Positions 2,435 to 64,000 of a stretch of DNA of 64,000 bases are shown piece by piece. Within the stretch, counting starts at the first letter, position 1, and every line of letters begins with the position of its first letter. This DNA is from an uncultured Bacteroides sp. Lineage in GTDB: Bacteria; Bacillota; Clostridia; Christensenellales; CAG-917. Position numbers and translations under genes: made by a program. The stretch is taken from NCBI GenBank assembly GCA_964499325.1, contig CAZCKS010000001.1, positions 5,627-69,626 on the forward strand, in the 5' to 3' direction. Under the pieces are notes generated by a model, which searched no databases, was not told the origin of the DNA, and was given only the letters and a program-made list of their open reading frames with translations.

Positions 2435-3919
2435 ATGAAAAAGAAATATAGTGTATTGTTTATATCTCTGCTTATGGCGATTTTGTGCGTTTGCCTCGTC
2501 GCCTGCAACGACGCAGACGAGAGCCTCTCGCGCGATTATACCTATAACGACGTTTATTCCGCATACGAAATAACAAATGCGGAAATCAGACAAAACACTT
2601 TGTCCTCTTGCGACTATGTTATCACTTGCGATATCGCTCCGAGCGCAAGCGCAAAGGTATATATCTCTCGTTACGACTACGTAAAGGCAACTGATACTGC
2701 AATAGATTACACCGCAAACGATGGCAAATATTGCTTCTCCAACGAGATTAAGTCGGATTATTATTTCATTCATATTGTGGATGGCGAAAAACACGCTGTA
2801 CTCCCCTTGGCTCATCCGCAAATGGCTCCGTCTGCATCAAGCGTTCAAACATCGGACCGCAAGAGCGTGGAAGTCAATTACAATTTCGTACCAAAGACGT
2901 CTTGGAGTTCCTTCTGCGATCCGACGGGCAAATCCGTGTTTAAGAGCGCAACGTCAACCTTTGACGCAAGCACGGCAACCGTACTCAAACAAAACGTCAA
3001 AATCGACGACACATCCCCTGCGGTAGACTATTCTCCGAGTGATGAAGCCCCATACTATTTTGTGGTGCTTTCCTCAAAGAACGGGATTGTGAAATATATC
3101 AGCAAAGCGTTTGTCACGTTGGACAATATGTATAGCAACCTGACTGTCTCAATCGAAGAAGTCAACAATGTCGCTTCTCTCGTGCTTTCTGGAACGTTTA
3201 TCACTGATGGAGAAATCGCTATAGGTTTGCACAGCGACAATTCCGTTTTGGACAGTCCTGTAGACGTCTATGGCGAGCGAGTAAGCGGATTGGCAAATTC
3301 CACGTTTAAAGCAACTCTTGACATCACGCAAATAATAAGCAACAGTGGCGAAGGCGTATGGTTTGACATCAAGATTTCCACGACAAGCGGCGGTGTGTTC
3401 GACGCAACGCCAGACAATGCGGATATGATGCAAGAACTTCTTTCCGGAGACGTTAAGTTCGAGTTCCAAGCATATGGAGACGACCTCAAACTCAACTATG
3501 TCAAAGGCGTTTATTCCGCCGTTAATTCGGTGTCTATCGATACGACAGGCGTACCGACTCTTATTGTAAAGGGCAACACCGCAAGCAATGTAACGGATAT
3601 AAAAATCCACGCAAATACCGACAACAACGGCACGAACGCGGGCGAAAAACTCTGGGATAATCAATCGAGCGAAAGCGGTAAATTTGAATTTAGAATTGCT
3701 CTTTCCGAGTTGCCAACAATAGACGGCGCAACGCCTTGGTCTTGGTTCCATGTCTACACCTATATCGGCTCAGAAAAAACATCTGCAGACCTCAACAGAG
3801 GCAAGACACTGTCCGTTGACGACTATTTCGACTACAACGGCGTACGCTACACAATCAAGGCATGGTCTGACAACGGCAGTTACGGCAAAGGACTTGCTAT
3901 CCAAACGGAAAAAATCTAA
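2435..3919 (+). CDS. Lipoprotein of unknown function with a C-terminal 'PTL(I/V)VKG ... PWSWFHVY' module
   Basis: Start moved to the ATG at 2435 (RBS aaggagg at 2422-2428). Signal ends in CLVAC. The C-terminal ~125 aa align with the four repeats of the 5854..7899 product. Confidence 0.8.
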   Translation: MKKKYSVLFISLLMAILCVCLVACNDADESLSRDYTYNDVYSAYEITNAEIRQNTLSSCDYVITCDIAPSASAKVYISRYDYVKATDTAIDYTANDGKYCFSNEIKSDYYFIHIVDGEKHAVLPLAHPQMAPSASSVQTSDRKSVEVNYNFVPKTSWSSFCDPTGKSVFKSATSTFDASTATVLKQNVKIDDTSPAVDYSPSDEAPYYFVVLSSKNGIVKYISKAFVTLDNMYSNLTVSIEEVNNVASLVLSGTFITDGEIAIGLHSDNSVLDSPVDVYGERVSGLANSTFKATLDITQIISNSGEGVWFDIKISTTSGGVFDATPDNADMMQELLSGDVKFEFQAYGDDLKLNYVKGVYSAVNSVSIDTTGVPTLIVKGNTASNVTDIKIHANTDNNGTNAGEKLWDNQSSESGKFEFRIALSELPTIDGATPWSWFHVYTYIGSEKTSADLNRGKTLSVDDYFDYNGVRYTIKAWSDNGSYGKGLAIQTEKI

Positions 3920-16224: not shown

Positions 16225-16671
16225 ATGCAAAAGATAGACGTAAAAATCAAAAAACTCAATCCCGACGCAATACTGCCAAAGTATGGTACGGAATTTTCCG
16301 CAGGTGCCGACCTTTATGCGTGCGAAGGCAAAGAAATCACGATCGAAGCACATCAAACGGTGTTTGTCCACACAGGCGTGGCGGTGCAAATACCAGAGGG
16401 TACAGTGGGCTTGATTTATGCCAGAAGCGGACTTGCCTCAAAGCGCGCGCTTGCCCCTGCAAATAAGGTTGGCGTTATCGACAGCGATTATAGAGGCGAA
16501 CTTATCGTCGCTCTTCACAACCACTCAAACGAGGCGCAAACAATAGGCGACAAAGAGCGCATTGCGCAACTTGTTATTGTGCCGTATTTGTCTGCGGATT
16601 TTATTGAATGCAAATCTCTCGACGATACATCTCGTGGTGAAAACGGATTCGGAAGCACAGGCAAAAACTAA
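16225..16671 (+). CDS. dut: dUTP diphosphatase
   Basis: AGADLYA, ARSGLASK, VIDSDYRGE, GFGSTG. Confidence 0.9.
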   Translation: MQKIDVKIKKLNPDAILPKYGTEFSAGADLYACEGKEITIEAHQTVFVHTGVAVQIPEGTVGLIYARSGLASKRALAPANKVGVIDSDYRGELIVALHNHSNEAQTIGDKERIAQLVIVPYLSADFIECKSLDDTSRGENGFGSTGKN

Positions 16672-16705
16672 AATCAATGGACAAATAGCCAATTAAGCCA
16701 ACAAT

Positions 16706-16749
16706 AAAAGAGGTTTATGTGTGCCAAATGCGCATATAAACCTCTTTTT
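16706..16749. terminator. Long bidirectional terminator between dut and cysS
   Basis: aaaagaggtttatgtg ... cgcatataaacctctttt. Confidence 0.75.
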
Positions 16750-16774
16750 GTGTGTGTTTTATTATTCTTTGATT

Positions 16775-18175
16775 TTAGATTTTTTCGGCAAACGAGCCTT
16801 GCGGTGTGTCTTTGACGGCATATCCCAAGGCGGCAATTTGCGCTCTCAACGCATCTGCCGTTGACCAGTCTTTATTCTGCTTTGCAAGACGCCTTTGCTC
16901 GACGAGGTTAATAACTTCTTGTGGCACGTCGCTTTCCTTTTGCGCTTGCTTATCCTCATAATACTTGACAAACTCGTCGGGATTTTCCTTGAACAAACCA
17001 AGCAAAGAATAAGTCTTTGCCACTTGATTTGCATCGGCTACGGCGTCGGCGTCCCCTGCTTTAAGTTTTGCCTTTATGCCCTTGAATATACCGAACAAAT
17101 CGGCAAGTGCTTTAGCAGTGTTGAAATCGTCATCCATAGCACGGTTGAATCCGTCATCAATCCACTTGCTTGTCTTATCGCTTGAAAGTCCGCTGTTTTT
17201 GACATCGGCAAGCGTCTTATAAAAGCCGTACATGTGCTTGTCCGCATCGGGGAACAACTCGTCGGTAATATTTATATCGCCTCTGTAATTTGTTTGCAAA
17301 AGCGCATATTTGATAGTGTCGGGCTTATATTTTTCAAGCAAATCGGCAAGCAAAAGACTGTTGCCCAGCGACTTGCTCATTTTTTGTCCGTTGACTTTGA
17401 TAAGACCGTTATGAATCCAGTATTTTGCAAATTGTTTGCCCGTGAGAGCCTCTGTTTGCGCAATTTCGTTTTCGTGATGCGGGAATATCAAATCTCTTCC
17501 GCCGCCGTGCACGTCGATTTGCTCGCCAAAAGCGTTCATGTTCATAGCAGAGCATTCGATATGCCAACCGGGTCTACCCTTACCCCAAGGCGACTCCCAA
17601 TAAATCTCGCCCTCTTTGGCGGATTTCCAAAGCGCAAAATCAAGTGGATTACGCTTGTTGTCCTCATTCTCTATGCGCACACTTTCATAAGCGTCTTCAA
17701 GGCGTCTGCCGCTCAACTTGCCATAGCCGGGGAAACTTTCGACCGCAAAATACACGTCGCCCCTATCCGTTGCATAGGCGTGTCCTTTCTCTATAAGTTT
17801 GGATACAAAAGCGATGATATTATCTATATTTTGAGTTGCTTTAAGCCAAATTGTGGGATCGTCCACCTCAAATTCACGCATGAGTTTGTCTATGCGCTCA
17901 ATCATCATTTGTGCATATTCGAGGGCGGGGATCCCCGTTTCTTGAGATTTTGCGATAATCTTATCGTCAACGTCCGTGTAGTTGCGCGCATAATTTACGT
18001 TGTAACCGATTTTTTCAAAATACTTGCGGATTATATCGTAAATAAGCGCTTGATAAGCGTGTCCGATATGTGCGTCGCCCGATACCGTGATACCGCACGC
18101 ATACATATTTACTTGCCCGTCGTGAAGCGGTGCAAAGTCCTCTTTTTTTCTTGTGAGTGTGTTGTATATTTTCAT
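16775..18175 (-). CDS. cysS: Cysteine--tRNA ligase
   Basis: Class I signatures HIGHAY and KMSKSLGN; 466 aa. Confidence 0.95.
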   Translation of the reverse strand: MKIYNTLTRKKEDFAPLHDGQVNMYACGITVSGDAHIGHAYQALIYDIIRKYFEKIGYNVNYARNYTDVDDKIIAKSQETGIPALEYAQMMIERIDKLMREFEVDDPTIWLKATQNIDNIIAFVSKLIEKGHAYATDRGDVYFAVESFPGYGKLSGRRLEDAYESVRIENEDNKRNPLDFALWKSAKEGEIYWESPWGKGRPGWHIECSAMNMNAFGEQIDVHGGGRDLIFPHHENEIAQTEALTGKQFAKYWIHNGLIKVNGQKMSKSLGNSLLLADLLEKYKPDTIKYALLQTNYRGDINITDELFPDADKHMYGFYKTLADVKNSGLSSDKTSKWIDDGFNRAMDDDFNTAKALADLFGIFKGIKAKLKAGDADAVADANQVAKTYSLLGLFKENPDEFVKYYEDKQAQKESDVPQEVINLVEQRRLAKQNKDWSTADALRAQIAALGYAVKDTPQGSFAEKI

Positions 18176-26514: not shown

Positions 26515-26530
26515 TAGTATTTAATACAAA

Positions 26531-26566
26531 CAAAAATCCACCGATTCATTCGGTGGATTTTTATTT
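26531..26566. terminator. Bidirectional intrinsic terminator
   Basis: aaaaatccaccga ttcatt cggtggattttt. Confidence 0.8.
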
Positions 26567-29132: not shown

Positions 29133-29246
29133 TCGGCGCAAATTAAAAACGGATACACAAGTATCCGTTTTTGGCGCCTTGCATTTCGGGACGCCTCATC
29201 GGCGCAAATTTAAAAACGGATACACAAGTATCCGTTTTTGGCGCCT
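29133..29246. repeat. Tandem direct repeat (47 and 48 bp, one indel) of the tRNA-Asn 3' end plus its terminator hairpin
   Basis: 29133..29179 and 29199..29246 both read tcggcgcaaatt(t)aaaaacggatacacaagtatccgtttttggcgcct. The second copy overlaps the last 8 nt of tRNA-Asn. Confidence 0.85.
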
Positions 29247-29314
29247 GTTGAGGGACTCGGACCCCCGACACTTCGGTTAACAGCCGAATGCTCTACCGAC
29301 TGAGCTAAACAGGC
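29239..29314 (-). tRNA. tRNA-Asn (anticodon GUU), CCA encoded
   Basis: Hand-folded cloverleaf: acceptor GCCTGTT/AACAGGC, anticodon loop CTGTTAA. Caveat: the T-loop reads TCCGAGT, so C sits where the near-invariant U55 is expected. Confidence 0.8.
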
Positions 29315-29565: not shown

Positions 29566-30573
29566 ATGAGCGACGTTATTCTTGACGCATTGGTGGATAG
29601 CGCAAAGATACTTGCAGTGGTAGTTGTATTTCAATTTCTCATCGCTTTTATCGAGCCTAAACTATCCGAAAAAATAAAACTAAAAGGTTCACTCGCACCG
29701 CTTATAGGCGTGAGCGTTTCGCTATTGCCTCAATGCGGGTTTAGTATTGTTGCCACCGATTTATATCAAAAAAAACACCTAACTCTCGGCACTTTGATAG
29801 GTGTATACCTTGCAACAAGTGACGAGGCATTGCCTATATTTCTTGCAAATCCCGATAAAGCGTTGCATGTATTGCCGTTGATTGGTTTGAAATTTGTATT
29901 AGGTCTCGTTTTTGGCTATCTAATCGACTTAATTCTTACAAAAAGCAGAAAAAAAGTTGAACATCACATCGAGCATTGCGATGAACAATACAAGATTCGT
30001 CTAACTGATTGCGACGGCGCAGAGCAAGTTCCCGTCTCTGAAGAAGAACATGTTGAACATTGCGATTGCGACGATTGTAAAGAAAACGAACATCATGACG
30101 AAAACACCAAAAAATCGCAAGATACCAATGATAAAAAGGTAAAAACACCAAAAGAAGAGAAACTTGACAAATATCTCTTCCATCCTCTCAAACACTCACT
30201 TGAGATTTTTGGATATGTATTTGTGGTAAATGTGATTTTGGGTGTGATTATGTACCGCATTGGCGAAGAAACTTTGGTTGAATTTCTTTCAACAAACAAA
30301 TATCTTGCGCCACTCTTTGCGGTTATTGTAGGTGCGATTCCCAACTGTGTATCTTCTGTCGTATTGAGCGAATTGTACATTATGGGCGGTCTGGGTTTTG
30401 GCGCCACGCTCGGTGGATTATGTATGAATGCAGGGCTTGGATTTATATATCTTTTCAAGGACGTAAAGCATACAAAGCGCAATCTTGCGATATTCGCGCT
30501 TATGTTTGTGATAAGCATTGCGATAGCGTATCTGTTTTCTTGGATATTCTCCTTTGATGTACTGCCCTTTTAA
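29566..30573 (+). CDS. Putative metal-ion permease of the ArsP_2 / 'putative manganese transporter' type, with a His/Cys/acid-rich central loop
   Basis: Duplicated halves carry PQCGFS and IPNCVSSV. Loop reads EHHIEHCDEQ...EEEHVEHCDCDDCKENEHHDEN. Confidence 0.55.
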   Translation: MSDVILDALVDSAKILAVVVVFQFLIAFIEPKLSEKIKLKGSLAPLIGVSVSLLPQCGFSIVATDLYQKKHLTLGTLIGVYLATSDEALPIFLANPDKALHVLPLIGLKFVLGLVFGYLIDLILTKSRKKVEHHIEHCDEQYKIRLTDCDGAEQVPVSEEEHVEHCDCDDCKENEHHDENTKKSQDTNDKKVKTPKEEKLDKYLFHPLKHSLEIFGYVFVVNVILGVIMYRIGEETLVEFLSTNKYLAPLFAVIVGAIPNCVSSVVLSELYIMGGLGFGATLGGLCMNAGLGFIYLFKDVKHTKRNLAIFALMFVISIAIAYLFSWIFSFDVLPF

Positions 30574-30719
30574 TTGCGTTTGACTAAATCAAAAGCATAT
30601 TCGATACCTTGATGTTTTACATAATAATCAAAATTCTTGCATGATGAATATGTATTAGAAAACATACGTATATCCAAAAAAAACGTGATAATCGACATAC
30701 TAAATACGCTTTTAGATGC

Positions 30720-30880
30720 AGTTGTTGACAACCTACCGTAATTGTTGATAACAAGTTGATTGTTTTGCACTTTTTGTCAACAATTATACACATAGATTTT
30801 TGCAAGATATTGCGGTTTTCAAATCACAATATAAGCATACTTTGTGGTTTAGATTTTATTTTCCACTTGTCAACATTGCT
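30720..30880. promoter_or_regulatory. Cluster of DnaA-box-like 9-mers followed by an A+T-rich tract upstream of dnaN (candidate oriC half / dnaN regulatory region)
   Basis: Compared with TTATCCACA. One mismatch: 30743-30751 (tgttgataa, complement) and 30784-30792 (ttatacaca). Two mismatches: 30723-30731, 30774-30782, 30843-30851, 30859-30867, 30867-30875. The tract 30876-30936 is almost pure A/T. Confidence 0.45.
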
Positions 30881-30936
30881 TATTTATGTTATCATTATTA
30901 AAGAATAAATTAAATAAAAAAATATACAGGCGGTTT

Positions 30937-32037
30937 ATGAAACTTATTTGTCAAGGAAACGAATTGAGCGACGCTCTCGCAAAAGTTGTAAAAGCACTTC
31001 CGGTAAAGCGCAATAATCCCATTTTAGACGGTGTAAAACTTACTGCACTTGGCGATACTCTTACGATTTTTGCAACTGATCTTGAACTTGCAATAGAAAA
31101 GAAAATCAATGCACAAGTGCTTATTGAGGGCGAAATCGTCGTCCCCGGCAAACTTTTTGCGGATTACGCAAAGAAAATCGAGGAAGAGCAAATCGAACTC
31201 GACGGCACAGATCCTGCAAAACTCATTATCAAATATCTTGATAGCGAATTGCAAATCAAGTGCATGAGCGCCGATGAATACCCCATTTTCAAAGAAGTTG
31301 ACACGCAAAACTCCTTTATTATTCTCAAAAAAGAATTTAAGGACATCATATCCAAGGTTATCTTCAACGTTGCTGTGGATGAAGCAAGACCGTCTTTGCG
31401 CGGTGTGTGCCTCAATATAAAAGACGAAGAAGTGGAAGCGGTTGCATCTGACGGATATCGCCTTGCTCTTGCGCGCGCACAAATCAAGAATAACGGTATT
31501 GTGGATAAAATTGTCGTGCCCTCAAAGAGCATGAATGAACTTGCCCGTCTTATCGACGAGGGTGAGGAAACTATCACCGTTTACGTTGAGAAGAACTATA
31601 TAATGGTTGACCTCTTCCATACCAAGATTGTCACAAGACTTATCGGCGAGGAATATATCAATTATGAGAAAATCATCCCTAGCGTGTTTACAACCGAAGT
31701 CACGATTGACAAAAAACTCTTTGAAAACGCAATCGACCGTGTATCTCTTATCAACCGCGCCGAGAAAAAATCCTATGTGAAAATGGAAATCAAAGAGGAT
31801 ACAATCTCTCTCAACGCTCACAGCGACGACGGCGAAATCAATGAAAAAGTCACAATCGGTCTCAAAGGCAAAGACCTTACAATCGGTTTCAACTCAAAAT
31901 ATATCATTGACAGCATGCACGCAATAGACGAGCCGTTTGTAACACTCAACTTCACCACGTCCACCGCTCCCGGAATTATAAAGGGGGAAAGTGATAGGTG
32001 GTTGTATTTGATTCTCCCCTTGCGCGTAATAGGATAA
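30937..32037 (+). CDS. dnaN: DNA polymerase III beta sliding clamp
   Basis: Start at MKLICQGNELSDAL.... Typical DnaN N-terminus, ~366 aa with three-domain length. Confidence 0.9.
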   Translation: MKLICQGNELSDALAKVVKALPVKRNNPILDGVKLTALGDTLTIFATDLELAIEKKINAQVLIEGEIVVPGKLFADYAKKIEEEQIELDGTDPAKLIIKYLDSELQIKCMSADEYPIFKEVDTQNSFIILKKEFKDIISKVIFNVAVDEARPSLRGVCLNIKDEEVEAVASDGYRLALARAQIKNNGIVDKIVVPSKSMNELARLIDEGEETITVYVEKNYIMVDLFHTKIVTRLIGEEYINYEKIIPSVFTTEVTIDKKLFENAIDRVSLINRAEKKSYVKMEIKEDTISLNAHSDDGEINEKVTIGLKGKDLTIGFNSKYIIDSMHAIDEPFVTLNFTTSTAPGIIKGESDRWLYLILPLRVIG

Positions 32038-32163
32038 TGAGAGCGTGAAATAGCGACTAACTTTGTCAGTGCCTTGCGTTTGACAACTCATGTACAAAAA
32101 GTACATTAGGGTTGCCAACAGCAAGGCACTTTCTCGTTATTCATCTATTTCACACTCTCATTA
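32035..32163 (+). repeat. H1: 129-nt imperfect palindrome / rod-like hairpin starting at the dnaN stop codon (family with H2, H3)
   Basis: Outer stem 32035-32053 / 32145-32163 (18 of 19 bp). Middle stem agtgccttgc / gcaaggcact. Apex atgtac aaaaa gtacat. Conserved loop strings ctaactttgtc and ttctcgttattc. Confidence 0.8.
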
Positions 32164-32289
32164 GATAATAAAAAACATATATTCCCAGACAATTACTGTG
32201 TATGATAATTCAAAAAACTCATTTAGATTGTTATTTATCTCAAAAAAATACCGATTTTAATGTTTTTGCTTTACAAATAAATTTATTTT

Positions 32290-32367
32290 ATATATTATTA
32301 TTAAGCATCCAAGCGGTGCAAATTCCTTTCCCGATAGGGACACAAGACCAAAAGGAGGTAAAAAAGT
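32290..32367 (+). promoter_or_regulatory. rpsF 5' leader with a hairpin that can sequester the RBS (possible S6:S18 autoregulatory leader)
   Basis: cctttcccgatagggacacaagaccaaaaggagg: ccttt can pair with aaagg of the SD region, and an inner hairpin tccc gata ggga is present. Confidence 0.3.
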
Positions 32368-32649
32368 ATGGATAAGTATGAAGTTCTCTACATCGTTCGT
32401 GGTGACGTTGATGACGACAAAAAGGCTCAAACTGTTGAAAAGTTTGAAAACTTGGTTGCTACTCTCGGCGGTACGGTTGACGGTTTGGACAAGTGGGGTA
32501 TGAGAAAGTTTGCTTACGAAATCAATAAGCAAAACGAAGGCTACTACGTTCTTATGAACATCACTTGCACAAAAGACGCACAAGCAGAACTTGACAGAAT
32601 CATGCGCAACGACGAAAATGTCGTAAGACAAATGATCATCAAGAAGTAA
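32368..32649 (+). CDS. rpsF: 30S ribosomal protein S6
   Basis: MDKYEVLYIVRGDVDDD... N-terminus, 93 aa, followed by ssb and rpsR. Confidence 0.9.
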   Translation: MDKYEVLYIVRGDVDDDKKAQTVEKFENLVATLGGTVDGLDKWGMRKFAYEINKQNEGYYVLMNITCTKDAQAELDRIMRNDENVVRQMIIKK

Positions 32650-32668
32650 TAAGATAAGGAGAAAATTT

Positions 32669-33052
32669 ATGAACAAAGTATTTTTGATCGGCAATTTGAC
32701 AAAAGATCCTGAATTGGCATCTACAAACAGCGGTATCAAATTTTGCAGATTTACACTTGCAGTGTCTCGCAGTTACGCAAAAGACGGCAAGAGAGAGACA
32801 GATTTTCTCCCTGTCGTAGTTTGGAGAGCACAAGCAGATAACTGCGCTCGTTACCTCAAAAAAGGTAGCAAAGCGGCTATTAGCGGAAGTATTCAAACAA
32901 GAAGTTATGACACGCAAGACGGTTCTCGTCGTTATGTGACAGAAATTGCAGCAGACGAAGTGCAATTCCTCTCTACAAGAAATGATGAAAACGGTGCAGA
33001 TGACGTCGATTTCGACGATCTCAAACCCATCGACGAAGACCTTCCATTCTAA
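32669..33052 (+). CDS. ssb: Single-stranded DNA-binding protein
   Basis: MNKVFLIGNLTKDPEL OB-fold N-terminus and acidic tip DEDLPF. Confidence 0.95.
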   Translation: MNKVFLIGNLTKDPELASTNSGIKFCRFTLAVSRSYAKDGKRETDFLPVVVWRAQADNCARYLKKGSKAAISGSIQTRSYDTQDGSRRYVTEIAADEVQFLSTRNDENGADDVDFDDLKPIDEDLPF

Positions 33053-33070
33053 TTTATAAGGAGTTAAAAA

Positions 33071-33319
33071 ATGGCTGAAGAAATCAAAGCACCACGCGCA
33101 CCCAAAAGAGTGCCCAAAAAGAAAGTGTGCATGTTCTGCGTAGACCATGTTGAAGATATCGACTACAAGGACGTTGCAAAACTCAAAAGATTCACAACCG
33201 AGAAGGGCAAAATCCTTCCCCGTCGTATGAGCGGTGTGTGCGCAAAGCACCAAAGAACGCTCGCAGTTGCTATTAAGAGAGCAAGAGTTATGGCTCTTCT
33301 CCCCTACAAAGCCGACTAA
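33071..33319 (+). CDS. rpsR: 30S ribosomal protein S18
   Basis: [43 protein letters not shown]. Confidence 0.95.
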
Positions 33320-33430
33320 ATCGCGAAATAATTGTGTCAGCACCCCGTTGCTTAAAAGTCGTGTACGCAAGTACACTTGGCTTTTATTCAACGGGGTGCT
33401 TTCTTATTCTTTGCGATTTAGTCGGCTTTG
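33307..33430 (+). repeat. H2: 124-nt rod-like hairpin overlapping the last codons and stop of rpsR
   Basis: Outer stem 33307-33324 / 33413-33430 (18 of 18 bp). Middle stem agcaccccgttg / caacggggtgct. Apex gtgtac GCAA gtacac. Loop strings aaataattgtgtc and ttcttattc. Confidence 0.8.
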
Positions 33431-33543
33431 TATAAGATAATATAATATATATTTTTCTGCGCAAAGGAATGACCAACGTTCAAAATTAGTATATAGCAAT
33501 TAAAAAGCCACTCAAACGAGTGACTTTTGTTAGTGATTGTGTT

Positions 33544-34773
33544 TTACACCGCTTGTCCATAAACATATCCGATGTAATTGGTTTCTTTATTCCAGTCTAA
33601 TTCTGTTTCAAATCTTAAGTTGCCGTCTTTGTCAATAACAAGAATGATATTTCCGTTATTGTCAGTTCGATATACCGCAATATTTCTTTCTTTAAAGCGG
33701 TCAAGCGTATCTTGGCGCGGATGATAGTAGGATTTGTGCAAATTACTGCTTATCATTGCATACTCAAATGTGTATGTATCAAGAAAATTTTCAGTTGAAG
33801 AAGAATCGCTACCGTGATGTCCTACTTTCAATACATCGCAATCTATCTTGCCGGTGCGTTTTGTTATAATCTTTTCATTTTTTGAATTACTGTCCCCCGT
33901 AAAGACGATTTTGCGATTGTTGTAAGTTAAAATACCAACAGGAGATACGGCATTTATAAGTTCCGAAGTGTTTAAACTTGTGCTATCGTAATACTCTTTT
34001 GTGGGACAATAGAACTTGAATTCGTATGTGTTATCGTCATCTGTAAGCACTATAGTATTTGAATTTTCATCTTCATCGACGTTTAACACGATATTACAAT
34101 TTGGCTCGTTCAATGCCGCGGCAAAAAATTCGGCATATTGGAGTGTTGATATTGTGTCTTTATCCTTAAAAAGTGCTATTTTGTCGCTTGGTATTGCCTC
34201 AAATTCACTACGGACTTCTGAACTTAAAGAATCCAAATTCGGCTCTGCCTTTATATAAGGCATAAATATATTATTAACTTGGAAAGCATCCACGACATCG
34301 TCGAGATATACTACATGATCTTCATCTGTATGCGTGAGCATAAGATATTCGATTGTTTTGTCTGTGATGTATGAGGAAAGATATTTAACAACGTCAGTCT
34401 CATCAAATTCACTATTATTATTCGGTTTTTTAGTGCTTCCACTATCTATAACCATATCTTTTCCGTCGGGAAGTTTGATATAAATGCAATCGCCCTGCCC
34501 TACATTTATCATGTGAACAACAAGATCATCTTCTCCGAAATTGAGATTTGGACCATTGTCGGCGTCTCTATTAAATATGCTGATTATCGCTTGATATGTA
34601 TCAGGAAATGCAAAATATATAACTGCAAATGTAATTGCAATTATAAGTACGATAGAAACAACGGCAATGATAAAAGCCTTTGGGTTTGCTTTATATGCCT
34701 TTTTTGCGATATCTTCTGCTGTTTTTTGTGATTTTTTAGCCATATTTATATTATATAAAAATACTATAGCCAT
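33544..34773 (-). CDS. Membrane-anchored metallo-beta-lactamase-fold protein, ComEC C-terminal-domain type
   Basis: HMINVGQGDC, LMLTHTDEDH, LKVGHHGSDSS, N-terminal TM segment. The start may be the MAKKSQ codon 10 residues in. Confidence 0.75.
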   Translation of the reverse strand: MAIVFLYNINMAKKSQKTAEDIAKKAYKANPKAFIIAVVSIVLIIAITFAVIYFAFPDTYQAIISIFNRDADNGPNLNFGEDDLVVHMINVGQGDCIYIKLPDGKDMVIDSGSTKKPNNNSEFDETDVVKYLSSYITDKTIEYLMLTHTDEDHVVYLDDVVDAFQVNNIFMPYIKAEPNLDSLSSEVRSEFEAIPSDKIALFKDKDTISTLQYAEFFAAALNEPNCNIVLNVDEDENSNTIVLTDDDNTYEFKFYCPTKEYYDSTSLNTSELINAVSPVGILTYNNRKIVFTGDSNSKNEKIITKRTGKIDCDVLKVGHHGSDSSSTENFLDTYTFEYAMISSNLHKSYYHPRQDTLDRFKERNIAVYRTDNNGNIILVIDKDGNLRFETELDWNKETNYIGYVYGQAV

Positions 34774-34913
34774 TGCAAATAAATATTTGTTAAGAATTGA
34801 ATATAAGACGCATAAAAGATGAGAAACAAGAAAGAGCCGCTTGAATGGACAGCCTAACGTATATGTAATACGTGACTGGATGATTTGATTATGTGGAAAA
34901 AATATATATAGTA

Positions 34914-35037
34914 TAAAATAGATATATCAGATAAAGAACAAGAAAACACCCATCCGAAACAAAACCAAACGTACTGACGTACGTGATTTTGGAGCGGATG
35001 GGTGTTGACACAGTTATTTGCTGATATATCTATTTTA
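34914..35037 (-). repeat. H3: 124-nt rod-like hairpin (minus orientation) starting at the proS stop codon
   Basis: Outer stem 34914-34930 / 35021-35037 (17 of 17 bp). Middle stem 34945-34956 / 34995-35006. Apex acgtac tgac gtacgt. Minus-strand loop strings caaataactgtgtc and ttcttgttctttat. Confidence 0.8.
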
Positions 35038-36474
35038 ATAGGCTTTGGCGAAATAGATGACGTGTGAAGCAGGCTTCCCGCACACCGGGCAAACATCGCC
35101 TACAGGTGTTTGGTCAAACGGCATACAACGTGACGTTGCTTGCATTGTTGCCTTGATATGCTCTTCGCAAGCACGGTCTCCGCACCACATTGTCTTGATG
35201 AATTTGTGGTTATTGAGAGCCTCTTGCATCTCATCGAGAGTATGGCAAGTGACAATGTTGGAATGCAAGAATTCGTGCGATTGATTGAACATATTCTTTT
35301 GAATATCGTCAAGCAGTTGCGGAATTTGCTCTGTCAAGTCGTCGATTTTGACTGCAAACTTGTCATGAGTGTCACGGCGAGCAATCATAACTTGACCGTT
35401 TTCTATATCGCGCGGACCGATTTCAAGACGTACTGGAACGCCTTTCATTTCCCACTCATTGAATTTCCAACCTGGAGATTGCTCTCTGTCATCAAGTTCT
35501 ACTCTTACGCCGATATTGCGGAGAGTTGATGCAACTTCGCTTGCCTTTTCCGTCACGCCTTCTTTGTGAGCGGCAACTGGAACGACTACCACTTGGATAG
35601 GTGCAACCATCGGAGGGAGTTTGAGACCGCGTTGGTCGCCATGTGCCATAATAAGAGCACCTATAAGACGGGTTGATACACCCCAACTTGTTTGATAAGG
35701 ATTTTTAAGTTGACCGTCTTTGTCAAGATATTTGATTTCAAAAGCAGAAGAGAAATTCTTGCCCAGATAGTGTGATGTACCCGATTGAAGCGCTTTTCCG
35801 TCGAGCATCATTGCTTCCATTGTGTAAGTGTCTACCGCACCTGCAAACTTCTCTTTTTCCGTCTTTCTGCCAACAAGAACGTCTATTGCAAGCACGTTTT
35901 GCATAAACTCACGATACACTTCGAGCATTTTGAGTGTTTCTTCTTCCGCCTCTTCCTTTGTTGCATGCAAAGTATGTCCTTCTTGCCAAAGGAATTCGCT
36001 TGTGCGGAGGAAAGGTCTTGTAGTCTTTTCCCAACGCACGACGTTTGCCCATTGATTGATAAGTACGGGTAAATCACGATAACTCTTAACCCACTTGGAA
36101 TACATAGAGCAAATGATAGTCTCGCTTGTGGGGCGTACAACAAGTTGTTCCTCAAGCGGAGTGTTGCCGATGTGTGTAACAAGCGCAACTTCCGGAGCAA
36201 AACCCTCGACGTGGTCTGCCTCTTTCACAAGGAAACTATATGGGATAAAGAGAGGAAAGTATGCGTTTTTGTGCCCTGTTTGTTTAAAACGCTTGTCCAA
36301 CTCGTGTTGGATATTTTCCCAAATTTCGTAGCCGTAAGGACGGATAACCATAGTGCCTTTTACGGGGCCGTAATCGACAAGTTGCGTCTTAAGCACAACG
36401 TCGGTGTACCATTGAGCGAAATCCTCGTTCATATCCGTGATTTCTTTTACAAATTGTTCTTTTTCCTTTGCCAT
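35035..36474 (-). CDS. proS: Proline--tRNA ligase (short, archaeal/eukaryote-like type with C-terminal Zn-binding domain)
   Basis: 479 aa. N-terminus FAQWYTDVVLKTQLVDYGPVKGTMVIRPYGYEIWE, class II core, C-terminal CGDRACEEHIK...CPVCG. Confidence 0.9.
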   Translation of the reverse strand: MAKEKEQFVKEITDMNEDFAQWYTDVVLKTQLVDYGPVKGTMVIRPYGYEIWENIQHELDKRFKQTGHKNAYFPLFIPYSFLVKEADHVEGFAPEVALVTHIGNTPLEEQLVVRPTSETIICSMYSKWVKSYRDLPVLINQWANVVRWEKTTRPFLRTSEFLWQEGHTLHATKEEAEEETLKMLEVYREFMQNVLAIDVLVGRKTEKEKFAGAVDTYTMEAMMLDGKALQSGTSHYLGKNFSSAFEIKYLDKDGQLKNPYQTSWGVSTRLIGALIMAHGDQRGLKLPPMVAPIQVVVVPVAAHKEGVTEKASEVASTLRNIGVRVELDDREQSPGWKFNEWEMKGVPVRLEIGPRDIENGQVMIARRDTHDKFAVKIDDLTEQIPQLLDDIQKNMFNQSHEFLHSNIVTCHTLDEMQEALNNHKFIKTMWCGDRACEEHIKATMQATSRCMPFDQTPVGDVCPVCGKPASHVIYFAKAY

Positions 36475-58857: not shown

Positions 58858-58882
58858 AAGCACTCAACAGAGTGCTTTTTTT
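58858..58882 (+). terminator. Intrinsic terminator after the tRNA pair
   Basis: aagcactc aaca gagtgctt plus T-run. Confidence 0.85.
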
Positions 58883-58964
58883 GTATAAAGAAAACCACCA
58901 GATAGTCTGGTGGTTCTTTTATGGGCTTTTGCTGATATGGTTATGCTTTGTGATTTGTAAAAGA

Positions 58965-61769
58965 TTACTCCACACGCAGGGCGTCGACGACGTTCTTGCG
59001 CGATGCGTTGATTGCCGGGATAATGCCCGATATTACTGTTAGGACAAGAGATATTGCGACAAGCGCAAGTGCGTGCAACGGGTGGAGGTGCAACAGCGAG
59101 CCTATGCCTGTAATAGCCTTTATTATGAGTGATATTATCGGGCAAAGGATGTAGGTGATTGCAATGCCGACAAGTCCACTCCACAGGCCGATGAGTGCAG
59201 TCTCGGCAATGAAAACGTGGCGAATATCTCTCTTGCGCGCGCCGATTGCTCTCAATATACCGATTTCGCGGATACGCTCTATGACGGAGTTGGATGTTAT
59301 AACGCCAATCATGACCGTTGATACCACAAGTGATATTGACGCTACAGCCACAAGCAATACCGACACCAAATCGACAATGGCAGACATATTTGTGAGGAAC
59401 ATTTCGGACACGTCGAAGTAACCGATATTGTCTTTTTCCCAATCTCCGATATATTCGATTATAGCCTCTTTTTGCTCAAAGGTTTCCGGGAAAATCGTGA
59501 AGTAACTTGCCGATTTATCCGCACCGATTGCGCGATTGAAGTAATCGAGTTTAAGCACTGTTCCATTGATGATGTTTACAATGTTGGAATTGTAGTCGTC
59601 GTCCGTAAATCCGGCGTTGTTCAAGCCTGGGCAATAGCCGAATATTGTTTCTTCCTCTCCGTTAAGAGAGCGTTGATATTTTGCGACGTTGCTGTTGTAT
59701 GCTTGCTCCACCGCCCATTCTGCAAGTTCGGGAGTGTAACAAAGCGCAGAATTTACAAAGGAATATCCTTTTTCTTTTTGACGGATTACGCCGACGATTT
59801 CAAGTTCTGTAGCGGAGTTTTCATACATGTTCTCAAGGCGTGATTGTTCACTGCTATCCCAGCCCCAGGTCAGGCTTGAGGAGGACAAGCCCATATCCGT
59901 ATATTGTTCGCCGTCCCACTCATAGTAATCGTCGTTGAGAATGAGTTTGAATTTTTGCCCGATGAAATATTCGTATGACACGTTTGTCAAATCCATTTTT
60001 ACAGGCTTTCCGCTATCGTCCAAAACGAGAGAGCCGTCCTCATTTTTCTGATATGTGTCGATGCCGAATTTATTCAACAAATCCGCAGAGATTTTGTTGT
60101 CTATGCCCACGCAAAGTACGATTTCGTTTTTATTTTGCGGATACCGACTGTTTTCTCCGATCAAGTCGTACGATTCAAGCATGGTGTCCTTATCCCCTGC
60201 CAGTTGTTGCCAATGTTTGGATTGCAATCCGTTTTCGCCAAGAACAGTAGAGGCAATGCCCAATGCGGTTATAGGTTGAGGGGATTGCGATACGTCCATA
60301 TATGTGCGATTGCCGTTTTTATCATAAGTTTCACGTACAAGATTGTATCTCAAGCCATAACTTACGCCCAATGACTTATAGTTTTCTTCGGGCATATCTT
60401 TCATATATTCCGTAAACTCTTCGGTGATTTCGTTTTTAGTTATTCCGTCTATGAAAGAGGAGACAAACTTTGAGACATAACTTGTCATGGTTGCGACGGA
60501 ACTATCCCCTGTTGCCGCCGTGACGCCGATTGTATCGCTGTCGGGATAAGCGTCGTCGGTAGTTTGGTTGGACAAGTTCATCATCATATCCATTATGGCG
60601 GAGTCTTTTACGTTGTATTGATATACGCCGAGAGGTACACTGGAAAACATTTCTTTTTCGAGTTTTTGGATATAAACATCAAACCCGTTGGAAATTGCAA
60701 GCACAAGTCCAAGTCCTATTATGCCAATGCTACCTGCAAAAGTCGTAAAGAAGGTGCGGCGTTTTTTCGAGAAGAGGTTTTTGACCGAAAGCCCGAATGC
60801 CATACCCGCACTCATAGAAGTTGGCTTAAAGGACTTGTCTTTTTTCTTTTTGGAAAGACTGTTGATTCCCAACTTATCCAACGTCTTTGTGTGTTCTTCG
60901 CCGAGCGAAGCCATAGCCTTTTTGCGCTTGCGGTTGGAGATTCTTTTGTCGGGATTATTATCGATGTTTTGCGCGATTTCGGCATTTACGCTCACATTTT
61001 CATCAGATAAAGTGTCTGTTGTGATAATGCTTTCTATATTTTCAATATTATCGCTTGTCGTGTCCGTTGACGTTTTAGACGTCTCGTCGGGGACGTATGG
61101 ATTGGTGTCTTCTATAAGTTGACCGTCCTTGAATCGGCAAATGCGAGTTGCATATTGTTGTGCAAGTTCTGCATTGTGCGTGACCATAATAACAAGCCTT
61201 GTCTTGGATATTTCTTGCAAAATATCCATAACTTGCACGCTGAGTTCGCTGTCAAGCGCACCCGTCGGTTCGTCGGCGAGAATGATTTTAGGATCGTTTA
61301 CTATTGCTCTTGCAATAGCAACACGTTGCATTTGACCGCCACTTAATTGGTTGGGACGTTTGTTGATTTCGTCGTGCATATTTACCTTGTGCAAGGCAGT
61401 AATCGCCTTTGCTCTGCGCGTCTTTTTGTTTTCTCCGACAAGGCTTAAGGCAAGTTCAACGTTTTCAAGAACGGTTAAGTGCGGAATGAGATTGTAACTT
61501 TGGAATACAAATCCTATCGTTGCGTTGCGGTAAGCGTCCCAGTGTTCGTCGTCGAATTCTTTTGTGGAAACGCCACCTATAACAAGGTCCCCTTCCGTAT
61601 ATCTGTCAAGACCGCCGATTATGTTCAACATGGTTGTTTTTCCGCAACCGCTCGGACCGAGAATGGCTACAAATTCGCTTTCTCTGAAATTGAGCGAAAC
61701 CTTGCGAAGCGCATGCACCGTTGTTGTCGCGGTGGGATAATCTTTGATGATGTCTTTTAGTTGAAGCAT
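58965..61769 (-). CDS. Fused ABC transporter: N-terminal ATPase plus C-terminal MacB/FtsX-type permease with a large extracytoplasmic domain
   Basis: GPSGCGKTT, LSGGQMQR, ILADEPTGALD. C-terminal FtsX-like helices (...IGILRAIGARKRDI...). Confidence 0.85.
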   Translation of the reverse strand: MLQLKDIIKDYPTATTTVHALRKVSLNFRESEFVAILGPSGCGKTTMLNIIGGLDRYTEGDLVIGGVSTKEFDDEHWDAYRNATIGFVFQSYNLIPHLTVLENVELALSLVGENKKTRRAKAITALHKVNMHDEINKRPNQLSGGQMQRVAIARAIVNDPKIILADEPTGALDSELSVQVMDILQEISKTRLVIMVTHNAELAQQYATRICRFKDGQLIEDTNPYVPDETSKTSTDTTSDNIENIESIITTDTLSDENVSVNAEIAQNIDNNPDKRISNRKRKKAMASLGEEHTKTLDKLGINSLSKKKKDKSFKPTSMSAGMAFGLSVKNLFSKKRRTFFTTFAGSIGIIGLGLVLAISNGFDVYIQKLEKEMFSSVPLGVYQYNVKDSAIMDMMMNLSNQTTDDAYPDSDTIGVTAATGDSSVATMTSYVSKFVSSFIDGITKNEITEEFTEYMKDMPEENYKSLGVSYGLRYNLVRETYDKNGNRTYMDVSQSPQPITALGIASTVLGENGLQSKHWQQLAGDKDTMLESYDLIGENSRYPQNKNEIVLCVGIDNKISADLLNKFGIDTYQKNEDGSLVLDDSGKPVKMDLTNVSYEYFIGQKFKLILNDDYYEWDGEQYTDMGLSSSSLTWGWDSSEQSRLENMYENSATELEIVGVIRQKEKGYSFVNSALCYTPELAEWAVEQAYNSNVAKYQRSLNGEEETIFGYCPGLNNAGFTDDDYNSNIVNIINGTVLKLDYFNRAIGADKSASYFTIFPETFEQKEAIIEYIGDWEKDNIGYFDVSEMFLTNMSAIVDLVSVLLVAVASISLVVSTVMIGVITSNSVIERIREIGILRAIGARKRDIRHVFIAETALIGLWSGLVGIAITYILCPIISLIIKAITGIGSLLHLHPLHALALVAISLVLTVISGIIPAINASRKNVVDALRVE

Positions 61770-63526: not shown

Positions 63527-63545
63527 TAAGCGTTGTTTTAACAAG

Positions 63546-63579
63546 AAAAATCCACCGATCAATAAATCGGTGGATTTTT
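63546..63579. terminator. Bidirectional intrinsic terminator
   Basis: aaaaatccaccgat caataa atcggtggattttt. Confidence 0.8.
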
Positions 63580-63580
63580 G

Positions 63581-64000
63581 TTATCTATTCAATATCATGT
63601 TTTTAATATCCGCCACGGTTATTTTTATGCGAGGATTTGTCTTGATTTCATCGCTGATTTTATCTCTTGCGTGGATGACTGTCGTATGGTCTCTGCCGCC
63701 AAACATCTCTCCTATTTGCACAAGGGGCATGGGCAGAAGTTCGGTAATAAGATAGATTGCAATCATACGGGGTTCGACGATGTTTTTAGTCTTTTTCTTT
63801 GAAATAATATCTGCTGTCGAGATTTGGAAATATTTGCAGACAGCATCGATTATTCCGCTTGCGTCGGTAGTCTCGCCCTGCTTTTCTTTAAGGAAGCCGT
63901 CAAAAGCCTCTTTGGCAACCTCTTTTGTTTGAATTGGGCTGTTTGTGAGCGAACTCAAGAATACGATGCGATTTAACAGTCCTTCCATTTCGCGGATGTT
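63581..64000 (-). CDS. dnaA: Chromosomal replication initiator DnaA, C-terminal part (5' end beyond window)
   Basis: Domain IV: IISKKKTKNIVEPRMIAIYLITELLPMPLVQIGEMFGGRDHTTVIHARDKI. The frame stays open to the window edge (...NIREMEGLLNRI). Confidence 0.9.
   Translation of the reverse strand, partial: NIREMEGLLNRIVFLSSLTNSPIQTKEVAKEAFDGFLKEKQGETTDASGIIDAVCKYFQISTADIISKKKTKNIVEPRMIAIYLITELLPMPLVQIGEMFGGRDHTTVIHARDKISDEIKTNPRIKITVADIKNMILNR

Follow-up and report, generated by a model that had tools for sequence, protein, structure and literature searches.

Why should three genes of an uncultured gut bacterium each end in a long palindrome that begins on or just before the stop codon? The question arises in a stretch of 64,000 nucleotides (nt) of contig CAZCKS010000001.1 (positions 5,627 to 69,626), assigned to an uncultured Bacteroides sp. 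and placed by GTDB in the clostridial order Christensenellales. We call this whole stretch the window and give positions within it. An original prediction, made from the letters alone, described three hairpins anchored on stop codons, each in the orientation of its gene, and the coordinates it gave for the TAA codons of dnaN, rpsR and proS are correct. We found that these hairpins, here called H1, H2 and H3, are copies of a repeated chromosomal, non-coding unit of about 128 nt. The three copies, their parts and their upstream genes are as follows (bp, base pairs).

30886-32037, + strand: dnaN, with stop codon TAA at 32035-37
32035..32163, + strand: H1, full family copy, whose foot starts on the dnaN stop codon TAA (32035-32037)
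32068..32130, + strand: H1 inner hairpin (middle stem and GTAC apex), -33.0 kcal/mol, z -7.3
32131-32145, + strand: H1 U-rich tract, CUUUCUCGUUAUUCAUC, directly 3′ of the inner hairpin
33071-33319, + strand: rpsR, with stop codon TAA at 33317-19
33305..33432, + strand: H2, full family copy, with the rpsR stop (33317-33319) and the last four codons inside its 23-bp outer stem
33339..33400, + strand: H2 inner hairpin, -40.6 kcal/mol, z -10.2
33401-33415, + strand: H2 U-rich tract, CUUUCUUAUUCUUUGCG, directly 3′ of the inner hairpin
34912..35037, - strand: H3, full family copy, whose foot starts on the proS stop codon (35037-35035)
34945..35006, - strand: H3 inner hairpin, -34.8 kcal/mol, z -8.7
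34944-34932, - strand: H3 U-rich tract, UUUUCUUGUUCUUUA, directly 3′ of the inner hairpin
35035-36474, - strand: proS, with stop codon TAA at 35037-35

Folded as single strands with RNAfold, the three copies form unbranched rods of -60.2 (H1), -76.8 (H2) and -55.3 (H3) kcal/mol. None of 200 dinucleotide shuffles was as stable (z -10.0, -14.5 and -11.2, respectively), and these shuffles, together with the size of the family, rule out chance hairpins. The common rod architecture that had been paired by hand was recovered both in the alignment and in the consensus fold: an outer stem, a short AAYAAC/GTTNTTC helix, an asymmetric loop, a GC-rich middle stem and a GTAC-N4-5-GTAC apex. The two pseudo-peptides that had been noticed among the translated open reading frames (ORFs) are also present. 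We built two covariance models, one from H1-H3 and a later one from 108 copies. The scores from the first and second model are 130.8 and 127.2 bits for H1, 119.9 and 112.1 bits for H2, and 126.5 and 124.7 bits for H3, and with either model these three are the only segments of the window to exceed 110 bits. H1 scores 93.5 bits with nhmmer.

The family extends well beyond the window. A search pattern that covers the apex and the 3′ strand (GTAC N3-6 GTAC NNTNGG N12-16 GG NNN TTTC NNN TT N TT) matches at least 117 stretches in contigs taken at one genome per species. Two pattern matches, at the sampled loci L018 and L021 (further loci are labeled in the same way), are chance by inspection. A profile built on 108 aligned copies was searched against the window and 8-kb blocks around the matched elements, and gave 228 non-overlapping matches, 144 of them full-length and 84 partial, in 29 assemblies of uncultured gut Clostridia. 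The metagenome-assembled genomes (MAGs) that bear the family are labeled “Christensenella sp. UBA...”, “uncultured Clostridiales UMGS...”, CAG:238 and CAG:475. In the complete 1.65-Mb chromosome CP091723.1, copies are scattered from 248 kb to 1160 kb. As far as sampled, the family is limited to one clade of uncultured gut Clostridia. Judging by the additional copies within the sampled blocks, the density may be roughly one copy per 15-25 kb.

The family consensus reads 5′ AAAA-nn-GCGCT-AWWYAG-CGAATAAC-TGCGKCA-(12-bp stem)-TCAY-GTAC-n4-6-GTAC-RTTRGG-(stem)-CTTTCTTGTTCTTCAT-CTRWWT-AKCGC-nn-TTTT 3′. Fifty of the full copies do not fit the search pattern and contain the same conserved strings, so the conservation of these strings is not an artefact of that pattern. 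Among these 50 copies the apex varies (TTAC/GTAA), as does the short helix (GACTGAC/GTCATTC or GAATAGC/GCTCTTC), with the paired sides co-varying.

That the motif is new, as had been proposed, agrees with every search we made. At gathering score, Rfam 15 yields only 4 tRNAs in the window and no match to an element; at E<=1, seven loci with strong copies yield only the signal recognition particle (SRP) RNA, an L10 leader and a tRNA. The sole Rfam model to overlap an element is Atu_C9, at a sub-threshold 32.2 bits (threshold 40). The conserved strings appear in no relevant paper, and we found no description of the family in the searchable literature. A look-up of the exact ProS sequence returned no record. 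A plasmid or phage origin is ruled out, since blastn against plasmids and phages gave no match and a scan of viral contigs with the search pattern gave 0 matches.

We also observed the family in bins labeled Butyrivibrio crossotus, Phascolarctobacterium succinatutens and Anaeroplasmataceae. The loci are L038, L043, L049, L050 and L055 in bin CAVANK, L068, L097, L114 and L119 in bin CAVBBF, and L007, L052, L057 and others in bin CAVKUX. Some of the loci that look mislabeled align to loci of “Christensenella sp.” MAGs (L049 to L029 at 96%), and L114 matches the dnaN region of the window at 84%. Judging by these alignments, the organism labels of the three bins look wrong. A separate observation concerns assembly. 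L001, a Logan contig, ends at its position 3313, which is the apex of its H2 copy, and other copies reach the ends of contigs or of the 8-kb blocks. Short-read assemblies probably break at these palindromes, and copy numbers in MAGs are therefore likely underestimates.

The copies are placed on stop codons with high regularity. Among full copies that are first in their array, 103 of 110 have a same-strand ORF of at least 100 amino acids whose stop ends at model positions 3-29, and for 82 of those 103 at positions 6-10. Of 126 copies, 5 have the mirror arrangement, always with short, doubtful ORFs, and the 30 remaining copies are later members of tandem arrays. An 8-mer that includes the stop has its reverse complement downstream in 36% of family-bearing genes, compared with 0.4% of other ORFs, a background that spurious ORFs dilute. 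Ordinary terminators with perfect stems at the same loci (n=52) start 0-85 nt past the stop, and none of the 52 overlaps it. Therefore, stop anchoring is a trait of this kind of element and not of the clade's terminators generally.

Most copies close a transcription unit: 60 of the genes that come next are convergent, and of the 43 co-directional ones, 39 are separated from the copy by at least 105 nt. The upstream proteins, which in the window are DnaN, S18, ProRS and, at a hairpin called H4 that is described below, dUTPase, are neither truncated nor extended. ProRS and DnaN match C-terminal Pfam domains to their last residue or to at most 4 residues short of it, and RpsR is identical across strains with and without the family core. 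These complete C-termini rule out that the element supplies the stop codon by truncating the gene.

The hairpins had been held not to be intrinsic terminators, because no U-tract was thought to follow them directly. This objection does not stand. The inner hairpins of H1-H3 are directly followed by CUUUCUCGUUAUUC, CUUUCUUAUUCUUU and UUUUCUUGUUCUUU, respectively, with 5-6 U within the next 8 nt. In the family as a whole, the U-rich strand, CTTTCTTGTTCTTCATC, is among the best-conserved parts, and in the 50 copies found independently of the search pattern it is 60-99% conserved. Read on the antisense strand, the inner hairpin would have UGACGCAG... behind it, a sequence that is not rich in U. 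A U-rich tract 3′ of the hairpin on the sense strand only is the element's one clear strand asymmetry, and it fits the strict orientation rule. The element thus presents, on the transcribed strand, a GC-rich hairpin with a U-rich tract directly after it, and it does so past a stop codon at the end of a transcription unit. Because the consensus opens with an A-run and closes with a T-run, the whole rod also has the form of a two-way terminator, and the antisense U-tract of the rod is the complement of the stop codon and the A-run. A simple terminator scanner, which needs contiguous stems and loops of at most 8 nt, detects the apex stems only.

The prediction of covarying stems with conserved loops was borne out. 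Standard pairs occupy 94.1% of cells in the 108 aligned copies, compared with 73.0% when partners are shuffled and 34-45% when one side is slid by 1-3 columns. Double-sided changes occur in 32 of 44 pairs, and the covariation score is 0.529, against 0.156 for the shuffled and 0.06-0.13 for the slid controls. One U.G pair is fixed in 107 of the 108 copies. Since the copies are related and the alignment is anchored, these figures show that complementarity is kept, and not what keeps it.

The two stems differ in the mismatches that they accept. In the outer stem, G.U (36) and A.C (45) mismatches reveal no bias toward the RNA strand, while the middle stem exhibits a modest bias of the RNA type (31 G.U versus 10 A.C). 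The mean folding energy is -61.0 kcal/mol for the antisense strand and -59.2 kcal/mol for the sense strand. Because the outer stem has no mismatch bias and the antisense strand folds equally well, complementarity is at least partly kept at the level of DNA. Selection on the outer stem purely at the RNA level is ruled out by the same facts, namely no excess of G.U and no energy advantage of the sense strand. In addition, the 5′ A-run and the 3′ T-run have equal lengths in 88 of the 144 full copies, as against 28.5 in permutations, and multi-base changes are mirrored between arms when L044 is compared with L084 and also among the rpsR strains L125, L129 and L002. Symmetry of this sort is the expected outcome of templated copying of one arm from the other.

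Next we consider the copies as repeated DNA. The original prediction stated that stem sequences are unrelated between copies and that the hairpins are a selected RNA structure and not a mobile palindrome, and in the larger sample the first is wrong and the second is not supported. The core of H3 is near-identical to those of L017, L081 and L088, and the outer arm of H1 fits the family consensus GCGyNAWWYAG. We found 71 pairs of non-orthologous copies that share at least 90% identity across a length of about 118 nt that takes in the outer arms (14 within one assembly, 57 between assemblies); the best pair reaches 98%. The outer arm AAAACCTCGCTATTGAG is found behind five different genes. These pairs, together with the strand-neutral folding and outer-stem mismatches, speak against the selected-RNA interpretation. 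The accompanying expectation, that identical outer stems elsewhere would mean a plain mobile palindrome, was realized in part only, through the near-identical arms of non-orthologous copies.

Orthologous sites lead in the same direction. Flanks that are 95% identical can hold elements that are 66-76% identical, and L072 and L029 have the same outer arm and different cores. The dnaN and proS sites are filled both in the window and in relatives with 77-84% identity in these genes, and the subfamilies that fill them differ. Orthologous elements that were not swapped often outdo the adjacent coding sequence in conservation, for example 0.95-0.97 versus 0.77-0.80 for the flank. On the basis of these alignments, copies move or undergo conversion from locus to locus, and one core can take the place of another at orthologous sites.

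Arrays of 1, 2 and 3 copies number 61, 33 and 15, respectively. Copies 2 and 3 of L110 are chimeras that join a 5′ half from one subfamily to a 3′ half from another. L001, which encodes the same RpsR as the window, contains a second family copy after H1 and then a degenerate 3′ part (1905-2095); this insert is bracketed by a 33-nt direct repeat consisting of the H1 3′ arm and 14 nt of flank. A comparison of L086 with L015 reveals a 25-nt direct repeat around a half copy, and L121 and L122 differ by half a family copy with a 9-nt flanking direct repeat. Only extra or partial copies are bracketed by such long direct repeats (33, 25 and 9 nt). Within the ~0.9 Mb sampled, the elements are not accompanied by multi-copy or paralogous protein genes, which speaks against a nearby transposase.

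Two side observations concern the surroundings of the copies. Compared with L001, the window is 83% identical over the dnaN region (30217-32175) and 95% identical over rpsF-rpsR (32130-33383), with the step at about H1, which suggests a recombination breakpoint at or near H1. Also, other repeat modules accompany the family, in L120-L130 (100-330 nt past the rpsR stop), L029 (7296-7515), L017, L026, L081 and L116. One is a roughly 90-nt unit (ctaccgcac...caatcttttgctatcagtcttgcaagg...gtttggtg) and another a unit with cgggtgtgggtgtcccaccc...tcgtcattccgagcg. A small hairpin, GCGATTGAC...GTAGCAATCGC, lies inside the U-rich strand of some copies and takes the place of the 5′ half in others.

The flanks of the copies contain a further regularity, in that the 3′ flank often repeats, in inverted form, the bases with which the coding sequence ends. 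Extended outward from the conserved box, the palindrome starts at stop base 1 or 2 in 28 copies and 1-4 nt upstream of the stop in 42. It extends 2-6 nt into the coding sequence in 30 copies, where about 6 are expected by chance, and at least 10 nt in L038, L040, L098, L116 and H2 (15 nt). For H2, the inverted copy of the last rpsR codons had been predicted and is real: the arms 33305-33327 and 33410-33432, which include these codons, are 96% complementary. Because the C-terminus of rpsR is unchanged in strains with another hairpin, the coding side is ancestral, and the 3′ arm is therefore the copy.

The rpsR site is occupied differently among strains. H2 is present in the window and L001, and a plain terminator, AAAGACACGC...GCGTGTCTTT followed by a U-tract, in eleven metagenome contigs, L002 and L116. 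The plain terminator sits in the same frame as H2. An 18-bp outer stem, GACTAAAATTTATCGCAA/TTGCGATAAATTTTAGTC, surrounds it, includes the stop codon and exhibits compensated changes between strains; the H2 arms, TAAATCGCGAA/TTTGCGATTTA, resemble this stem with a 4-nt deletion in both arms. Because the plain terminator of relatives also has one, stop-anchored outer stems are not confined to this sequence family. Judging by this comparison, the family core seems to have replaced the inner terminator within an older stop-anchored frame at rpsR.

We rejected two other accounts of how copies reach their sites. That cores generally inserted into the loops of ordinary terminators is ruled out by the 0 of 52 ordinary terminators that overlap a stop and by outer arms that are common to unrelated genes. 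A TA target duplication, as in elements of the IS630/mariner type, fits copies of the form TAAAA...TTTTA and not those of the CCTGAGCGC...GCGCTCAGG type. A candidate orthologous “empty” site at 58880-58965 of the window is too diverged to define a junction.

Two further features of the window are related to the family in sequence or layout.

34806..34881, - strand: half copy, apex and 3′ half (profile positions 51-126), nhmmer 37.1 bits, in tandem behind H3
16663..16783, + strand: H4, nested hairpin of like architecture with another core, comprising inverted repeats I3 and I11, with the dUTPase stop (16669-16671) in its foot

The half copy, which is missing its 5′ half and lies upstream of a metallo-beta-lactamase-fold gene, scores 22.2 bits with the covariance model (34844-34883); the rod is lost (fold z -1.3). 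H4 lies between the upstream dUTPase gene and a convergent, downstream CysS gene. It folds at -44.5 kcal/mol (z -6.1), and the covariance models, which place it at 16664-16788, score it at only 21.9 and 16.8 bits. Its outer stem, AAAAACTAAAATCAA/TTGATTTTAGATTTT, contains the dut stop codon, its inner stem is a perfect 19-bp helix of different sequence, and its 3′ strand, TTATTCTTTGATTTTAG, is similar to that of H2. From these sequences, H4 appears at best a distant relative of the family, and it may be a member of another family that shares this layout.

Some ordinary-looking hairpins of the window are also repeated. The same plain terminator core, AAAAATCCACCGAT...ATCGGTGGATTTTT, occurs at 26528-26566 and 63543-63582, two loci 37 kb apart, so duplication in this genome extends to ordinary-looking terminators. 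The copy at 26.5 kb may pair weakly, on its outer side, with the end of the coding sequence that precedes it. A tandem duplication with a period of ~67 nt is found at 29135-29245, adjoining a tRNA gene (29242-29314, - strand); its unit is the hairpin GGCGCAAATT-AAAAACGGATAC-ACAA-GTATCCGTTTTT-GGCGCC.

What, then, is the element? We lean, by a modest degree, toward an interspersed palindrome comparable to the REP and ERIC repeats that acts as an intrinsic terminator and 3′-end hairpin, spreads as repeated DNA, and has its arms kept complementary at the DNA level. The inner hairpin and U-rich tract would serve as a Rho-independent terminator and as a protecting hairpin at the 3′ end of the mRNA, and this role would fix the orientation of the element. 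The whole rod, from A-run to T-run, may also halt convergent transcription at the stop codon. The complementarity of the arms and their growth into coding sequence would result mainly from hairpin-templated DNA synthesis, that is, template switching of the quasipalindrome type, and from gene conversion between copies; selection on individual base pairs of the RNA would not be the main cause. As to placement, a template switch could occur at the microhomology formed by TAA and the A-run, sequence between such direct repeats could be deleted, or palindromes could survive where they cannot be removed without loss of the stop.

Several points weigh against this interpretation. We infer termination at the element from its sequence and genomic context, and template switching is proposed from patterns among the copies; selection for structure on both strands would produce a similar symmetry. 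The stem, at about 30-60 bp with bulges, is far beyond the usual length for a terminator, the U-tract is interrupted (UUUCUUGUUCUU), and the window's own copies have weak terminal T-runs. A terminator has no need of the near-invariant unpaired strings AGCGAATAAC, TGCGKCA and CATC or of the fixed U.G pair, and these are probably read by something sequence-specific, either a protein or the copying machinery. Being located past the inner U-tract, the outer 3′ arm would be missing from terminated sense transcripts; thus, its upkeep needs another reason. Finally, the proposed steps do not account for the precise anchoring on stop codons or for the near-invariant unpaired strings; a trans-acting transposase and an RNA-binding partner are therefore live rivals.

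The alternative that survives best, although we consider it unlikely, is a selfish, non-autonomous mobile element of a kind with REPINs or miniature inverted-repeat transposable elements (MITEs). It would be mobilized in trans by a single-copy enzyme, such as a Y1/HUH transposase of the RAYT type, that recognizes the folded single strand by its conserved unpaired strings. Any terminator activity would then be a by-product, and target choice, together with the loss of harmful insertions, would account for position and orientation. Conserved loops with covarying stems are what recognition of structure plus sequence would be expected to leave, and non-orthologous copies up to 98% identical within and between genomes, subfamilies, arrays, partial copies and the half-copy difference with its 9-nt direct repeat (L121 and L122) are all in keeping with mobility, as is the equal folding of both strands. 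On the other hand, full copies have no direct target-site duplication, their flanks being inverted repeats, and the roughly 0.9 Mb sampled contain no multi-copy protein gene close to the elements. Target choice alone does not explain 94% co-orientation together with overlap of the stop, since sites further downstream would be harmless, and the sense-only U-rich tract is left unexplained.

Next in order, and also improbable in our estimation, is a self-installing terminator cassette that needs no transposase. New copies would be written onto stop codons by template switching during replication, between an existing copy and a gene end. TAA and the A-run would provide the microhomology, and the fold-back of the new hairpin would copy the last bases of the gene in inverted orientation. 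Such a process would be a form of repeat spread that leaves inverted, not direct, target duplications, and it would install a two-way transcription stop at the end of the reading frame. Given that like outer stems surround unrelated plain terminators (in rpsR relatives and possibly H4), the process may be a general one and not that of a single family.

We find it doubtful that the element is a cis-acting, structured RNA of the 3′ untranslated region (UTR) that works with a partner of its own (an RNA-binding protein or RNase III, for example) and controls mRNA decay or couples translation termination to the fate of the RNA. Terminating ribosomes would be slowed or stalled by so stable a stem around the stop codon, as is reported for REP sequences near stop codons in E. 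coli. Several observations are favorable: 103 of 110 copies have the stop codon in the foot of the hairpin, orientation is strictly kept, both the unpaired strings and the U.G pair show conservation, the middle stem accepts G.U over A.C, and orthologous copies are often better conserved than the coding flank. By contrast, the outer-stem mismatches carry no RNA-strand bias, the outer 3′ arm would never be transcribed if the inner U-tract terminates, and near-identical copies behind unrelated housekeeping genes (dnaN, rpsR, proS and dut) oppose gene-specific regulation.

Single-strand recombination sites like attC, either integron-type cassette ends or orphan attC sites, are largely refuted and very improbable: although imperfect palindromes of about 125 nt, the size of Vibrio VCRs, that lie just past or over the stop codon of a co-oriented gene, with structure conserved above sequence, variable stems, conserved unpaired features and an AAC...GTT box pair, recall such sites, the boxes (GAATAAC/GTTCTTC, GACTAAC/GTTATTC or GACTGAC/GTCATTC) do not fit the R″/R′ consensus RYYYAAC/GTTRRRY, they are internal and not terminal, with 20-25 bp more stem on the flanks, the upstream genes are dispersed housekeeping genes without cassette arrays or integrase context, and the tandem arrays of elements contain no ORFs.

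Returning to the proposed terminator that spreads as repeated DNA, the family could be informative in several ways. Should the rods prove to be terminators, they would show where a considerable fraction of the transcription units end in this uncultured and little-known gut lineage, and a covariance model is ready for annotating them. The break of L001 at the H2 apex illustrates a hazard for assembly. The combination of a foot on the stop codon, strict orientation and inverted copying of gene ends is apparently undescribed for bacterial palindromic repeats, and the family may show that terminators can spread as repeated DNA without a transposase. Its copies also offer hundreds of natural replicates for asking how hairpins arise and stay complementary, whether by RNA selection or by templated DNA synthesis.

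Among known systems, REP/BIME repeats and REPINs of Proteobacteria are extragenic palindromes at gene 3′ ends that form mosaic, multi-module arrays and have roles in the stability of mRNA 3′ ends and in termination. Some REPs lie at most 15 nt from stop codons and affect translation. REP units measure 20-40 nt, and two REPs with conserved stems make up a REPIN; these repeats are linked to RAYT genes, can lie in either orientation, and vary in their distance from the stop. The new family shares with REP/BIME the interspersed palindromes, the location at gene 3′ ends and the mosaic arrays. It differs from REPs and REPINs in being a single 128-nt rod with variable, covarying stems and conserved loops, a strict sense orientation and overlap of the stop, and we saw no short, conserved palindrome of 20-40 nt paired in inversion. 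No RAYT gene turned up near the elements in the 8-kb blocks, where no search aimed at RAYT genes was made.

The ERIC/IRU repeats of enterobacteria and the Correia elements (NEMIS) of Neisseria are imperfect palindromes of 127-150 bp that have spread in the manner of MITEs. They lie in transcribed intergenic DNA, form rod-like RNA that can terminate or destabilize transcripts, and insert at TA with duplication of the TA, in either orientation. The new family resembles them in size and rod form. Unlike them, it has an unrelated sequence and host clade, no direct duplication, inverted gene-end flanks and a fixed orientation. The ERIC2 primer string has no match with up to 3 mismatches in the window. 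As in MITEs, there are terminal inverted repeats, in that the whole unit is palindromic and its arms are common to non-orthologous copies. A direct target duplication of fixed length was not found in full copies, whose flanks are inverted repeats of 0-15 nt, and TA flanks are absent from copies of the TGA/GCGC type.

Rho-independent terminators, including bidirectional ones with an A-tract and a U-tract, have in common with the family a GC-rich hairpin followed by a U-rich tract, an A-run on the 5′ side with a T-run on the 3′ side, and a location at transcription-unit ends. The ordinary terminators of these genomes are unique hairpins of 6-12 bp, whereas the family is a repeated, stop-anchored rod of four helices and roughly 60 bp with conserved unpaired strings. 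Quasipalindrome template-switch mutagenesis (for example, PMC7202029) is a mechanism and not a family: imperfect inverted repeats are perfected or extended by copying from arm to arm, which is known to give mutational hotspots at single loci. Template switching of this kind would give the mirrored changes, equal run lengths and inverted coding ends that are seen in the family. Unlike the single-locus hotspots, it would here be a standing property of a whole repeat family. In its size, form and position, then, the element is closest to ERIC, Correia and REP/BIME repeats, and in its function it would be closest to intrinsic terminators.

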